64,000 bases of DNA from Escherichia coli (GCF_003019035.1 NZ_CP027448.1), one strand, 5' to 3'. Positions 15,462-28,300 are shown, numbered from the stretch's first letter. Made by a program: numbers and translations. The notes: generated by a model not told the origin, from the sequence alone.

Positions 15462-16600
15462 TGAGATGGTCTTCCCCCTCCTTCACGGCAGCCTTCAATT
15501 GCGCCATGAAGGATAAACTTTAACCACAAAAATAAGAGGGATACCATGTCTGAACAGAAAATCACCGGCATCGAGCTGGCTAAAACGAACTTTTATCTTT
15601 TCAGTATCAATGCTCATGGCAACCCCGCAGGAAAGGCCAAACTTTCTCGCAATCAACTGCTTAACTGGCTGGTGCAACAGCCTAAAATGACTGTTGCTAT
15701 GGAGGCTTGCGGGGCATCCCATTACTGGGTCCGGGAAATCAGGAAACTCGACCATGACGTAATATTGCTTCCGGCACAACATGTTAAAGCTTATCAGCGG
15801 CGTCAGAAAAATGATTATAACGACGCACAGGCAATAGCTGAGGCCTGCCAACATGGAACTATACGACCCGTACCAATAAAAAATCTGGAGCAACAGGACG
15901 TCCAGACTTTTTTGAAAATGCGCCGGTTGGTTTCGATGGAAAGGACACAACTGATAAATCACGTTCGTGGACTTCTTGCTGAATACGGCATTGTGTTCAG
16001 TAAAGGTGCAACAGAACTACGCCAAAAATTACCGGCACTACTTGAGGATGCGGAAAACGAACTCACTGATACCATGAGGACGTTATTGCATCGGCAGTAT
16101 ATACGGCTGATTACACTGGATAATGAATTGGAGTGGTATGATTCTGAACAGAAAAAATGTCCGGCAGGATCCTGTGTGCAAACGGTTGTTAGCTATTCCA
16201 GGATTCGGCCCCCTGGTTAGTCAGGCAATAAAAAGCTGGATGGGGGATGGAAAACAGTTTAGACGAGGAAGGGATGCATCTGCAGCTCTGGGGCTGGTTC
16301 CCCGACAGTTCAGCACGGGGGAAAGCAGGTTCTTCTGGGCATAACAAAATGTGGAGATCAATATATCAGATCTATGCTGATACACGGTGCCAGAGCGGTA
16401 TTGTTCAGAGCCTCAGAGAAAACTGATTCACTTAGTATGTGGGTTAATCGTATTCGGGAAAAGCGTGGCTTCAACCGGGCAGTTGTTGCTCTTGCAAATA
16501 AACTCCTTCGGATCGCCTGGATAATTATCGCCCGCAATGAGATGTATTTGCCTGCAATTTAAGCCAGATGTAATCTGACAGATACCTGTATAAATAACCG
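15462..16600 (+). mobile_element. IS110-family element with decayed transposase (boundaries approximate)
   Basis: DEDD-type IS110 transposase reading frame; left boundary inferred from where homology to the inverted partial copy at 27925-28300 stops. Confidence 0.6.
15546..16562 (+). pseudogene. IS110-family transposase, two frameshifts
   Basis: Three consecutive ORF pieces (15546-16220, 16123-16344, 16374-16562) carry the N-terminal catalytic region and the C-terminal IS110 signatures (...LLAIPGFGPLVSQAI..., ...LGLVPRQFSTGES..., ...ALANKLLRIAWIIIARNE...). Confidence 0.75.
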
Positions 16601-17566
16601 GTAACTGTCAGATCAGGTCTGAGCTAATACAGGTATGGCAGAACGTGACGTATTTGTACGGTGAATCCGGGGACATTTTGTGGAAGGTTTCCCGGAAATA
16701 GACCATGCAGGAGGAATGACCGGCGATAAAGTCTGCAAATACGGACTGATAAGGGTGATTATTGGCTCTGGCGACGGCTTTTAGAACTTCTTTCACCATT
16801 CTGGTGTGGACTTTCTGGTGCTCCAGGTTGTGTGACATGGGAACTCATTCTGGATGGTTACTCTGAAAGCTCATATTCTGCTACACCCCGATTTGCATCT
16901 GCCAAACTGTCGTGGTTTTGACGAGCCGCTTACGTAAATAATTGCTGTTAACAAACAGATTTAATGTTTCATCATTTTTATTATGTCGCCACTCTGTCCG
17001 CTCTGATACCCCTACTCACTATCATTGCTGGTGAGTCTTGGACTAACTCAAATAACTATTACGGGATATGGGGAGTGACAGCAAATGCTGTATTTTCTCT
17101 TGGTTCCTCACTTTATATTAAGTTTGTCAGCAATTTTCGCTCTTCATAAAAACGTACTGTCTGGTATTGGATGAATGTGAAGCATACCAGAGAGGAACTA
17201 TAAAAATATACATCAGTCATTCCATCCTGTTCTGTCTGTAAAGTCCTAATTATTTCTGAACTGTACTGGTGATAAAGCTTGGTGTTTGTTGTTTTTATAA
17301 CTAATTGAAATTACTTGGATAATGTTAAATAATCTTAAATAATTTTTCATCTGACTCTTTGTGCTTTAGGTTGGTTTTATCCAACGTCTTGGGTGTGCGA
17401 TATGCCGACATGTTATGTATTGCGATCTCCCTTTAATATTTATTGGATAGATGTTTATTGTGTCTTTGCATTATTGCCTGTGCATGTACAGGCAATGGCC
17501 GCGGTTGCAGATGAATTTCATGTGTTATTTTAGTTTGTCGCGTCGCACAAAGAGGGGTGGGGTGAA

Positions 17567-18109
17567 ATGCGTCTTGGAATAATAATGCAGCTGTTGATTG
17601 TGCTCTTTTTTATGCGGGATGGATGGGGGGCGGAGCGAATAATATTTTCTGTAGATGTTGTGTCTTCAGCTTGTCATGTGGTGGTGGATGCGGACAGCAC
17701 CGGCAACAGTGGCCGGCTGACATTCGGGACTTACCGCAAGTCCACGGGGGCGTCTGTGCCTCCGCGTGACTTCACTGTGCGTCTGTATGAGTCCGGTGCC
17801 ACGGTTCAGGGCTGCTCAGCCTTTAAGGTCGGGCAGGTCGCCACTCTGGATTTTGGCAATCCGGGACAGCTGGACGCAGGGGGCGTGGTCACCCGCGGTG
17901 CCGGTGATGGTATTCGCGTGGATGTGCGCGCGGTGGATGCGCAGGCAGATTATCGCGGACGTCTGACTCAGGACAGTCATTCGGTGAATTACCCGGTGGA
18001 GTTTGCTGCTAAGGGACAGTTCCGTTTTCGTGCGCAGCCGGTGTTTCCGGCAAACGTGAAGGCGGGAGAATACACGGGTGCACTGACCTTTGTGGTCACG
18101 TATCAGTAA
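17567..18109 (+). CDS. Fimbrial minor subunit (FaeC-like) of a K88/F4-like chaperone-usher operon
   Basis: 180-aa secreted protein ending ...TFVVTYQ (pilin C-terminal strand); first gene of the operon, as faeC in K88. Confidence 0.7.
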
Positions 18110-18123
18110 CGGAGAAAAGGATT

Positions 18124-26016: not shown

Positions 26017-27255
26017 TTGCTGGGATATATGTTTGGAACTATAGAAAAAATCAAAACGGGTGATGATGTTCTGTCTGCCGTTATTCACCGTGTTGAATGG
26101 CTGTTTGATACATTCTCTTCTGTCTGCCTGTCTTTTTCCGGAGGAAAAGATTCCACAGTGCTTTTCCATCTTGTGGCTGATGTGGCCCGCAGGAAGAACC
26201 GTCGTTTCTCTGTATTGTTCATTGACTGGGAAGCCCAGTATCAGTGCACCATTGAACATATTCAGAAAATGCGGGAAATGTACCGGGATGTGACGGATAC
26301 CTTTTACTGGGTGGCACTTCCCCTGACCACGGTTAACGGTGTCTCGCAGTTTCAGCCGGAATGGATATGCTGGGAACCCGGTGTGACATGGGTTCGCCAG
26401 CCACCGGAAGAAGCTATTACTGATATGGAGTATTTCCCCTTTTATCAGTATGCCATGACATTTGAAGAATTTGTTCCCGCATTTTCTTCCTGGTTTGCCA
26501 GTAACAGGTGTGGAGTGGCAGTGCTGACCGGTGTCCGAGCAGATGAATCCCTCAACCGCTTTATGGGACTGGTGTCCCAGCGCAAACTGAGATATGCCGA
26601 TGATAAACCCTGGACTACGGCATCGCCTGAAGGGTTTTACTACACCATGTATCCGTTGTATGACTGGAAAGCCCGCGATATATGGATATATAACGCCAGG
26701 ACCCGTGCCATCTACAATCCCCTGTATGACCTGATGTACCGCGCTGGCGTGCCGTTACGTAACATGCGTGTCTGTGAACCCTTTGGTCCGGAACAGCGCA
26801 AGGGACTATGGCTTTATCATGTTCTGGAGCCGGAAACGTGGGGCCGAATGTGTGAGAGGGTGTCCGGTGCTGCCAGCGGAGCACTTTATGCCAACGAAAG
26901 CGGTGCCTATTTTGCCCTGCGTAAACGTATATCAAAACCAGCCCATCATACCTGGCGCAGCTATGCGATGTTCCTGCTGGATGTGATGCCGGAAAGAACG
27001 GCAGAACATTACCGTAACAAGATAGCTATCTACCTGCGCTGGTATCAGACCCGGGGATTCCCGGATGACATCCCGGATGAACAGGAAAATGACCTGGGGG
27101 GCCGGGATATCCCGTCCTGGCGACGTATCTGTAAGACACTAATAAAGAATGATTTCTGGTGCCGGACCCTCTCCTTCAGTCCGAACAAACCCCGGCACTA
27201 CGAACGTTACCTGCAGCGTATGAAAGAAAGGAGAAAGGAATGGGGGATTCTGTGA
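26017..27255 (+). CDS. PAPS-reductase-like protein (YbdN/IbrA-like, DUF3440-type)
   Basis: 412-aa ORF with PP-loop SGGKDS (LSFSGGKDSTVLFHL) near the N-terminus. Confidence 0.8.
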   Translation: MLGYMFGTIEKIKTGDDVLSAVIHRVEWLFDTFSSVCLSFSGGKDSTVLFHLVADVARRKNRRFSVLFIDWEAQYQCTIEHIQKMREMYRDVTDTFYWVALPLTTVNGVSQFQPEWICWEPGVTWVRQPPEEAITDMEYFPFYQYAMTFEEFVPAFSSWFASNRCGVAVLTGVRADESLNRFMGLVSQRKLRYADDKPWTTASPEGFYYTMYPLYDWKARDIWIYNARTRAIYNPLYDLMYRAGVPLRNMRVCEPFGPEQRKGLWLYHVLEPETWGRMCERVSGAASGALYANESGAYFALRKRISKPAHHTWRSYAMFLLDVMPERTAEHYRNKIAIYLRWYQTRGFPDDIPDEQENDLGGRDIPSWRRICKTLIKNDFWCRTLSFSPNKPRHYERYLQRMKERRKEWGIL

Positions 27256-27884
27256 CACCGGAGGTGGAAGTATTGAGCAACATGATTCGTCAGTATTTCA
27301 GTCAAGTGCGAACTGATTCAGAAACCATACAGGCTCTGAATCATCTGCGCAGAGTGCTTCATGAGGTCAGTCCTTTTGCACAGGAGCCTGTGGACTGCGT
27401 ACTGTGGGTGAAAGCGGATGAGGTGGTGGCCAACGATTATAATCCTAATGTCATGGCGCCAGGTGAGAAGAAGTTACTCAAACAGTCTCTGGAGAAAGAC
27501 GGTTTCACACAACCAGTGGTTGTGTCGGAGGAGAAGAACCATTACCTCGTGGTGGATGGTTTTCATCGTCAGCTGCTGGGCAGGGAAGCAGACACAGGGA
27601 AACGCTTTAAGGGCTGGCTACCTGTAGCCTGTATTAATCCGGAGAGAAAGGGACAGGCATCACGTATTGCTGCGACCATTCGACATAACCGGGCCAGGGG
27701 GAAAAATCAGATAACCTCAATGTCTGATATTGTCAGAGACCTTTCGCGCCTGGGCTGGTCAGATGAACGAATTGGCACTGAGCTGGGTATGGACCGGGAT
27801 GAAGTGCTGAGACTGAAGCAGATTAGCGGGCTGATAGAATTGTTTCAGGAGGAGGATTTCAGCCCTGCGTGGACGGTCCGTTAA
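27240..27884 (+). CDS. ParB-like nuclease domain protein (YbdM/IbrB-like)
   Basis: ParB N-terminal-domain features (...YNPNVM...; ...VVDGFHRQ...); ATG at 27240 with AAGGAGAAAGG RBS, overlapping the upstream gene by 16 nt. Confidence 0.75.
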   Translation: MGDSVTPEVEVLSNMIRQYFSQVRTDSETIQALNHLRRVLHEVSPFAQEPVDCVLWVKADEVVANDYNPNVMAPGEKKLLKQSLEKDGFTQPVVVSEEKNHYLVVDGFHRQLLGREADTGKRFKGWLPVACINPERKGQASRIAATIRHNRARGKNQITSMSDIVRDLSRLGWSDERIGTELGMDRDEVLRLKQISGLIELFQEEDFSPAWTVR

Positions 27885-27924
27885 ATAGCAGTTCAGCAAC
27901 GGCACCGGTCCAGCGACCCGGCGT

Positions 27925-28300
27925 GGCACGGCTCAGCTATTGCCTGTGCGTCGTTATAATCATTTTTCTGACGCCGCTGATAAGCTTTAACATGTTGTGC
28001 CGGAAGCAATATTACGTCATGGTCGAGTTTCCTGATTTCCCGGACCCAGTAATGGGATGCCCCGCAAGCCTCCATAGCAACAGTCATTTTAGGCTGTTGC
28101 ACCAGCCAGTTAAGCAGTTGATTGCGAGAAAGTTTGGCCTTTCCTGCGGGGTTGCCATGAGCATTGATACTGAAAAGATAAAAGTTCGTTTTAGCCAGCT
28201 CGATGCCGGTGATTTTCTGTTCAGACATGGTATCCCTCTTATTTTTGTGGTTAAAGTTTATCCTTCATGGCGCAATTGAAGGCTGCCGTGAAGGAGGGGG
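27925..28300 (-). mobile_element. Partial IS110-family copy (left end plus about 100 codons of transposase), inverted
   Basis: Reverse complement of 15462-15830 almost exactly; the transposase ORF (27893-28228) diverges after about residue 100. Confidence 0.75.

Follow-up and report, generated by a model that had tools for sequence, protein, structure and literature searches.

Probable homologous inversion of a K88-like fimbrial segment between two defective IS110-family copies on an Escherichia coli plasmid

A 12.1-kb segment bearing a K88-like fimbrial operon lies between two oppositely oriented, defective copies of one IS110-family element in Escherichia coli NZ_CP027448.1, and related plasmids carry this segment between the same two flanks in the reverse orientation. 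The two isomers are very probably the outcome of a RecA-type homologous inversion between the dead IS arms, a rare event fixed in one clonal lineage rather than a regulated switch. Exchange between the 397-nt arms, 383 nt of which are perfect, would invert the intervening 12.1 kb and convert the isomer of plasmids p3RM8082 and p35A2a into that of the window, by which we mean the whole 64,000-nt stretch of DNA analyzed, with positions counted from its first letter.

The inverted repeat, its IS110-family copies, and the genes between and beside them

A repeat search of the whole 64-kb window returned one inverted pair, at 15454-15850 (+) and 27924-28320 (-). The arms are 397 nt long, 99% complementary, and separated by 12,073 nt. 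Base-by-base comparison revealed three mismatches, solely at IS positions 6, 390, and 392, with uninterrupted identity over 383 nt; a repeat of this length and identity is far beyond chance in 64 kb. An earlier sequence-only reading had reported about 370 bp of repeat at 15462-15830 and 27925-28300. The repeat is real and those coordinates fall inside the true arms, but the length given was about 25 bp too short. The same reading described each arm as an IS left end plus about 100 transposase codons, in agreement with an IS start at 15454, an ATG at 15546, and an end of identity at 15842-15850, that is, 92 nt of non-coding sequence and 99-101 codons. The left boundary of the IS was set at 15454, the exact position from which independent copies are homologous. 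Arm 2 is a stump of the IS found in arm 1, cut at IS nt 389-397, and adjoins DNA 39 nt past the stop codon (27884) of a ParB-like gene, at whose end the second copy had indeed been described as truncated. The entire unit, 15454-28320, is 12,867 bp.

The first copy (15454-16557, +) is not whole either. When it was aligned with the intact 343-aa copy of E. coli A28 (L005) and with pRKI3099b (L006), its transposase proved to carry two frameshifting indels, of -2 nt near 16157 and -1 nt near 16320; homology to intact copies stops at 16557, which leaves out the right end and the final 5 codons. PF01548 (DEDD_Tnp_IS110; the N-terminal DEDD, RuvC-like domain) matches both 15546-16220 (E 6e-15) and the stump ORF at 27893-28228 (-) (E 9e-8). 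PF02371 (Transposase_20) is found in the long copy only in a shifted frame, at 16123-16344, leaving no single intact frame with the C-terminal domain. The left end is kept in both copies and the right end is absent from both, the long copy stopping at 16557 and the stump at IS nt 389-397. Judged from these defects, both copies are defective IS110-family members, and neither can make a transposase; no intact IS110 gene was found elsewhere within the 64-kb window.

Intact relatives of the element do occur in E. coli. These 343-aa proteins reach 306.7 bits against NF033542 (IS110 family RNA-guided transposase; cut-off 140), and their non-coding ends are unusually short, at 92 nt and approximately 31 nt. 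The fold of the 92-nt left end is somewhat more stable than that of shuffled sequence (z = -2.6). A search of both junction regions against Rfam 15 (E <= 1) gave no bridge-RNA-like family, solely chance-level matches to eukaryotic or archaeal families, and five independent copies of the element have no target motif in common in their left flanks.

Examination of the DNA between the arms placed the fimbrial operon and the genes downstream of it within the bracketed segment, as had been proposed. The long IS copy is followed by approximately 1 kb of operon-upstream sequence (16558-17566) that includes promoter-like sites near 17294-17343 and a 76-aa hypothetical ORF (16608-16838, -); in IS-less Shigella plasmids, homology sets in near 16630. 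The K88/F4-like (kappa-type) chaperone-usher operon spans 17567-24707 (+), as identified by PF02432 (Fimbrial_K88), other Pfam matches, and the annotation of the 99.2%-identical p3RM8082. Its genes are faeC-like (from 17567), usher (18124-20568), chaperone (to 21352), faeF-like (21387-21878), major-subunit-like (22093-22887), faeH-like (23115-23912), and faeI-like (to 24707). The major-subunit gene is a variant, labeled hypothetical by PGAP. Downstream on the same strand are a FaeA-like small ORF (25061-25396; PF04703), a VirK/DUF535 gene fragment encoding the C-terminus (to 25901; PF04393, positions 124-279 of the 281 in the profile), a PAPS-reductase/DUF3440 gene (26029-27255), and the overlapping ParB-N-terminal-domain gene (27240-27884), the last two identified by Pfam and by the annotation of p3RM8082 and p35A2a.

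In the left flank, a CblD/CfaE-type pilus tip adhesin gene is present as a C-terminal fragment (14893-15282, +; PF07434 CblD, profile positions 166-295 of 296), located downstream of an IS66-family element and annotated in p3RM8082 as a CfaE/CblD family pilus tip adhesin. Next to it is a psaF-like 3'-end remnant (15300-15453, -) cut off by the IS left end. This remnant shares 85-93% identity with 28650-28801, where the intact psaF has its 3' end, the two forming direct repeats D1/D2, and its 15321-15453 portion matches the psaF region of p3RM8082 by BLAST. The right flank opens with a mosaic of gene debris (28321-28650), in which 28321-28370 is approximately 90% identical to mbeA relaxase fragments and 28504-28607 approximately 85% identical to insQ/tnpB (IS200/IS605-type). 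A 136-aa ORF at 28433-28843 had no NCBIfam or Pfam match, and the insQ/tnpB origin of part of it is seen solely at the DNA level. Beyond lie psaF-like (28696-29235, -; PF17550 PsaF) and psaE-like winged-helix (29180-29836, -; PF00486) fimbrial regulator genes, both also annotated in p3RM8082 and p35A2a, and, past the latter, the IncFII repA (31682-32551, -).

Two isomers on the same flanks

We term window-type the isomer in which the left flank leads into the long IS and the operon, and the ParB gene into the stump and the right flank; in the opposite isomer, the segment is reversed between equal flanks. The complete plasmids p3RM8082 (L001) and p35A2a (L002) both carry the opposite isomer. 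BLAST of the window against each gave three collinear blocks, with 15454-28320 in one orientation (99.2% and 98.0% identity, respectively) and the flanks 13499-15850 and 27932-32806 in the other, their sides swapped. A junction census found window-type junctions in the window, L022 (one contig in 7 samples), L024 (+1), and L029, and opposite-type junctions in L001, L002, L008/L021/L028 (one 153-kb contig), L013-L015, L017-L020, L023, L025, L026, and L034. L022 and L024 cross from the left flank through the long IS into the operon, with 100% identity to the window in 8,675 bp, and L029 crosses from ParB through the stump into the right flank, matching the right junction of the window. Opposite-type flanks are 98.4% to 99.9% identical to the window, many of the opposite-type draft assemblies standing at 99.9%.

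Window-type junctions were found neither in PLSDB nor in 5,426 complete RefSeq E. coli genomes, and apart from the window, finished records are all of the other isomer. The window type is supported solely by the window together with draft contigs recovered in a search for encoding contigs, and isomer assignment in the source of the window and in the drafts rests on assemblies. No window-type draft contig spans the whole segment, the contigs breaking near 26102. The sequence-only reading had expected the approximately 12-kb segment to be inverted by recombination between the arms, and had proposed comparison with related plasmids. That comparison upholds the prediction, with both isomers existing on the same two flanks (the window, L022/L024, and L029 versus p3RM8082, p35A2a, and drafts) and with arm identity ample for homologous recombination.

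The site of exchange, its ancestry, and competing explanations

The base at IS position 6 is T beside the psaF-remnant flank and C beside the mbeA/insQ-remnant flank, whether the arm continues as long copy or as stump. This held for 29/29 scored arm junctions, drawn from the window and 26 locus ids, some of which are overlapping extracts of one contig. Since this SNP always stays with the flank, the exchange point lies between positions 7 and 389, inside the homology and not at the IS tip. The crossover is placed no more finely than this interval, as the arms of the closest relatives of the window differ solely at position 6. The exchange would presumably depend on RecA and be rare. The inversion leaves gene content unchanged and disrupts no gene, since each breakpoint falls within dead IS sequence; the inner repeat boundaries are crossed by no ORF except the dead transposase, and no coding ends are swapped. 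The fimbrial operon flips together with its own upstream region of approximately 1 kb, with the psaEF-like regulators and repA staying outside.

The stump/ParB junction with the psaF-remnant flank is also present in L004, L012, and L016, whose ParB/PAPS genes are just 92-95% identical to those of the window. Recurrence of the stump with this flank in such lineages points to the opposite arrangement as ancestral, so that the opposite isomer would be the older and the window isomer derived; the stump itself, as proposed earlier, is left over from a still older rearrangement. The 100% identity among window-type contigs, compared to 98.4-99.9% for opposite-type flanks, fits one inherited event in a more diverse ancestral background, and the sequence comparisons support a historical inversion fixed in one lineage rather than active flipping. 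In L010 and L011 the window-type right junction has different surroundings: both are 100% identical to window positions 26102-28991 and diverge abruptly to the left. We rejected these as an independent, ancestral window-type right junction because complete identity followed by abrupt divergence looks like a recent recombinant. Their junction in another context means that either more than one exchange or later recombination between plasmids must be invoked. The arms have also been homogenized within plasmids: both arms of L002 share A at position 183, and the stumps of L002 and L029 have the long-copy bases at 390 and 392.

If the 397-nt inverted repeat had been resolved wrongly in the window assembly and in the short-read drafts, the source plasmid would not be inverted at all. 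Every finished PLSDB or RefSeq record is of the other isomer, as would then be expected, and the arm-2 contig (L036) of GCA_012647285.1 ends inside the repeat. Such an artefact is nonetheless quite improbable: draft contigs of at least nine assemblies run from the unique left flank through arm 1 into the unique IS interior and the operon, with 100% identity to the window over its left junction; L029 spans arm 2 into psaFE/repA; drafts of other strains (L018-L026) give the other isomer, so no assembler bias is evident; and a 397-nt repeat is within paired-end reach. It is extremely unlikely that the segment is a mobile module resembling a composite transposon, inserted independently in either orientation into different plasmids. 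The best plasmid matches do end exactly at the outer edges of both arms, but both isomers lie between the same two flanks, which have only changed sides, the outer boundaries consist of a left end each, and both IS copies lack a right end and an intact transposase. Moreover, no target duplication was seen, and the 12.9-kb unit was not found at any other location. IS110 recombinases can invert DNA between suitably oriented sites (PMC11208160), both arms retain the whole left non-coding end with its modest fold, and intact relatives exist in E. coli, all of which favor site-specific inversion at the two left-end junctions by a bridge-RNA recombinase supplied in trans from an intact copy elsewhere in the cell. 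These enzymes, however, exchange strands at a core on the IS boundary (PMC11208160), whereas the position-6 SNP reveals internal exchange in every locus. Without a right end in either copy there is no donor (RE-LE) site, the window has no intact IS110 gene, and no Rfam RNA family matches the junction regions. We regard action of such a recombinase as most unlikely.

The 383 nt of perfect inverted homology would permit recurrent RecA-mediated flips, homogenized arms in L002 and L029 suggest repeated interaction, and in the other isomer psaEF lies directly upstream of the operon and co-directional with it. These observations would suit an actively flipping, phase-variation-like switch, with both orientations present within cultures and fimbrial expression altered by orientation. 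That is very unlikely, given that the window-type left junctions are all clonal (100% identical), that assemblies give single paths through arm 1, that the operon takes its own upstream kilobase along so no promoter is uncoupled, and that the sole recombinase-like genes are the two dead IS110 copies, with no dedicated recombinase. We likewise give little credence to the idea that the isomers are unequal, either through slow, heritable modulation of the fimbriae by recurrent RecA flips or through intact short-ended IS110 relatives acting on the kept left ends. The ancestral isomer has psaE-psaF, the IS remnant, and the K88-like operon all reading in one direction, immediately downstream of the IncFII replication region, and in the window isomer the operon is reversed. 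Modulation could conceivably proceed by read-through from psaEF or by the orientation of replication relative to transcription.

Relation to known inversions and significance

Homologous inversion between IS copies has ample precedent. Among documented sources of inversions in E. coli, recombination between IS copies is the chief one (PMC4173774), and IS-IS recombination occurs at about 4.5e-5 per genome per generation (PMC5009759). We compared the window with the long-term evolution experiment's IS1- and IS150-bounded inversions (PMC4173774) and with IS-IS events in mutation-accumulation lines (PMC5009759). It resembles these in having opposite copies of one IS, exchange within shared sequence, conserved gene content, two viable isomers, rarity, and inheritance by lineage. 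It differs from the IS1/IS150 cases in that the repeats are dead IS110-family stumps sharing just 397 nt, on an IncF virulence-type plasmid, in natural isolates rather than experimental lines. From the IS110 family, with its DEDD transposase and bridge RNA as studied in IS621 (PMC11208160), come PF01548, common to both arms, and the Transposase_20 domain of the long copy. Unlike functional members, both copies in the window are dead and RE-less, and the segment would not have been moved by the recombination chemistry of the family. Programmed switches such as fimS/FimBE, Hin, Gin, Cin, and the Rci shufflon of IncI plasmids share with the window a segment bounded by inverted repeats, two orientations, and fimbrial genes. 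Unlike fimS, Hin, or the shufflon, the window has no dedicated recombinase or short specific crossover sites, what flips is the whole operon and the DNA upstream of it, not a promoter or a set of alternative coding ends, and each lineage has a fixed orientation. The operon itself is of the K88 (F4)/CS13 kappa type known from plasmids of E. coli and Shigella; it shares 99.2% identity with its p3RM8082 counterpart and is merely a passenger. Homologs of faeCDEFHI were listed for STEC O121:H7 RM8082 in a report that mentions neither the IS copies nor the inversion (PMC9729726).

An IS-mediated rearrangement is a kind of event already well known, and no new mechanism is revealed here; the phenotypic consequence is probably little or none. 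The inversion explains why no database plasmid aligns in one piece across this region, and it cautions that the repeat can make short-read assemblies of these plasmids ambiguous. The four junction types provide a marker separating the clonal lineage from its relatives. In natural isolates, a 397-nt pair of dead IS stumps suffices to reorganize the adhesin region of a virulence plasmid.

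The inverted arms and the IS copies that carry them

A repeat search of positions 14000-30000 and of the whole window returned a sole long inverted pair, 15454-15850 against 27924-28320, which is 397 nt long, 99% complementary, and separated by a gap of 12,073 nt. The sequence-only reading had described this repeat correctly, but had placed it inside the true arms, about 25 nt short in total. Column-by-column comparison of the arms revealed only three mismatches, at IS positions 6, 390, and 392, so that an uninterrupted identity of 383 nt remains.

Both arms are the left ends of IS110-family copies. 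The left boundary is window position 15454 (GTAAGC...), exactly where the alignment of three independent copies begins; these lie in unrelated contexts on the E. coli A28 chromosome (L005), plasmid pRKI3099b (L006), and the WGS1363 chromosome (L007). The transposase ATG is at 15546, and each arm therefore comprises 92 nt of non-coding left end and approximately 100 codons. Matches to PF01548 (DEDD_Tnp_IS110) were found in both arms, and a match to PF02371 was found deeper in the long copy (15454-16557) in a shifted frame. The 343-aa product of an intact relative matches NCBIfam NF033542 ("IS110 family RNA-guided transposase") with 306.7 bits. Compared with this relative, the long copy lacks 2 nt near 16157 and 1 nt near 16320, and its homology ends at 16557, leaving it without the last five codons and the entire right end. 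Of the second copy only a stump is left: it breaks off at IS nt 389-397, where it meets DNA lying 39 nt past the stop codon of the ParB-like gene. Neither copy is capable of transposition or of recombinase production.

Intact relatives of this element are only ~1.15 kb (e.g., L005 2501-3655), with very short non-coding ends (92 nt left, ~31 nt right) and 6-bp terminal inverted repeats (GTAAGC...GCTTAC). No common target motif was obvious among the left flanks of five independent IS copies. The left end (15454-15545) gave a folding z of -2.6. A second inverted pair, 149-317 against 12231-12399 (169 nt, 96%, ~11.9 kb apart), brackets a SPATE-type serine-protease autotransporter gene (3339-7238, minus strand) and a MASE4-GGDEF gene (10505-11887), and may delimit another rearrangement-prone block. 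Beside it are diverged IS66-family sequences in direct orientation (1069-2795 and 12864-14616, 73-77% identical).

Both orientations of the fimbrial segment

Between the arms lie ~1 kb of DNA upstream of the operon, the K88/F4-like chaperone-usher operon (17567-24707), a FaeA-like ORF, a VirK/DUF535 fragment, a PAPS-reductase/DUF3440 gene, and a ParB-N-domain gene. The "virK" fragment (within 25061-25901) covers just the C-terminal portion of a DUF535 protein (124-279 of the 281 profile positions) and is preceded and overlapped by the 111-aa ORF with the weak FaeA-like match. The left flank holds a CblD/CfaE adhesin fragment followed by a psaF-like 3'-end remnant, which the IS left end abuts. 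The right flank holds an mbeA-like fragment (28321-28370), an insQ/tnpB remnant (28504-28607), intact psaF- and psaE-like regulator genes, and then IncFII repA. The DNA from the stump to psaF (28321-28650) is gene debris, with a ~50-nt piece of mbeA (ColE1-type relaxase) and a ~100-nt piece of insQ/tnpB, and the 136-aa ORF crossing it (28433-28843) is spurious. Positions 15300-15453 and 28650-28801 are a diverged psaF 3' end with its downstream hairpin, 85-93% identical in direct orientation, one an IS-cut remnant and the other part of the intact psaEF pair; this implies that the plasmid once had two regulator loci of the psaEF type.

A megablast search of 72,556 plasmids gave no one-piece match to at least 80% of 13500-30500. 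The best two plasmid matches, p3RM8082 (L001), from the cattle isolate STEC O121:H7 RM8082 (PMC9729726), and p35A2a (L002), end exactly at the outer arm edges; they carry this segment too, but the flanks have exchanged sides and are reversed. BLAST of the window against p3RM8082 gave a clean three-block pattern, in which the segment 15454-28320 is collinear (99.2% identity; 98.0% to p35A2a), while the left flank plus arm (13499-15850) and the arm plus right flank (27932-32806) each match the reverse strand on the far side. In both plasmids the long IS copy and the operon follow downstream of psaE-psaF; past the stump, a CfaE fragment is annotated in p3RM8082 and an IS100 insertion is present in p35A2a.

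Contigs from public assemblies were then retrieved by exact-protein look-up with the stump ORF, the 224-aa ORF of the long copy, and ParB, and each arm was classified according to the flank outside it and the sequence into which it continues inward. The window-type left junction (psaF remnant/long copy) was found in the window, L022 (one contig, seven samples), and L024 (plus one similar place), the latter two agreeing with the window at 100% identity across 8,675 bp. The window-type right junction (mbeA/insQ remnant/stump) was found in the window, L029 (3 mismatches in 6.7 kb), and L010/L011. The opposite isomer was found in L001, L002, L013-L015, L017-L020, L023, L025, L026, L034, and one 153-kb contig (L008/L021/L028). 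Window-type junctions were absent from PLSDB and from 5,426 complete RefSeq E. coli genomes. These orientation calls are based on assemblies, and the window-type draft contigs cover only part of the segment because many assemblies break near window position 26102. The proposal from the sequence-only reading that recombination between the arms would invert the segment is supported by related plasmids, in which both isomers occur on the same flanks.

Direction and route of the exchange

The stump with the psaF-remnant flank also occurs in L004, L012, and L016, from plasmid lineages that share only 92-95% identity with the window in their ParB/PAPS genes, indicating that this junction is old and the p3RM8082-type isomer ancestral. 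Opposite-type flanks vary from 98.4% to 99.9%, whereas no window-type left junction differs from the window, a pattern that fits a single inversion passed on within a clone. L010 and L011 carry the window-type right junction with 100% identity from 26102 to 28991, and leftward of this their DNA is unrelated (an autotransporter pseudogene); they appear to have arisen later, by recombination inside the PAPS-reductase gene. Position ~26102 is 73 nt into that gene, and contig starts and stops cluster at ~26100-26123 in several independent assemblies (L010/L011/L030/L031, L022, L029, L034, L036, L037), with three SNPs clustered at 26115-26124 in L028. This pattern suggests a recombination boundary at the site, or else that those genomes have the gene pair in a second copy.

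All arms with the psaF-remnant flank have T at IS position 6, and all arms with the other flank have C, whichever interior follows. The base tracks the flank, which puts the exchange within the homology, at some point from position 7 to 389. The core sequence at which IS110 recombinases act lies at the element boundary, and their donor site is the joined right and left ends (PMC11208160). Inversion by such a recombinase is very unlikely here, as the right end and an intact enzyme are both missing and the exchange lies away from the boundary. The segment was rejected as a mobile module, because this pair of flanks is the only setting in which it is seen. Inversions in E. coli classically come from homologous recombination between inverted IS copies (PMC4173774, PMC5009759), and recombination of this kind between the two arms, which would invert the segment, is very probably the explanation here; it would presumably depend on RecA. 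Both arms of p35A2a carry A at position 183, and this homogenization, together with the L002 and L029 stumps at positions 390/392, hints at occasional gene conversion. At the latter positions (window 15843/15845 and 27929/27931), the stump bases are of the long-copy type in L002 and L029 and form a swapped pair (GCC versus CCG) in the window, L001, L004, and L028, a short, complex difference where the truncation ends that is possibly a gene-conversion footprint.

Consequences of inversion

No gene is interrupted by the inversion. The operon retains its own upstream kilobase, and the psaEF regulators and the replicon remain outside the segment. The inversion alters only how the operon is oriented with respect to psaEF, repA, and the transfer region, and which flank stands upstream of each dead transposase fragment. 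No features of a programmed switch were seen, and a functional difference between the isomers is possible but unsupported. The phenomenon is very probably an ordinary IS-mediated homologous inversion, a further case of a well-known kind.
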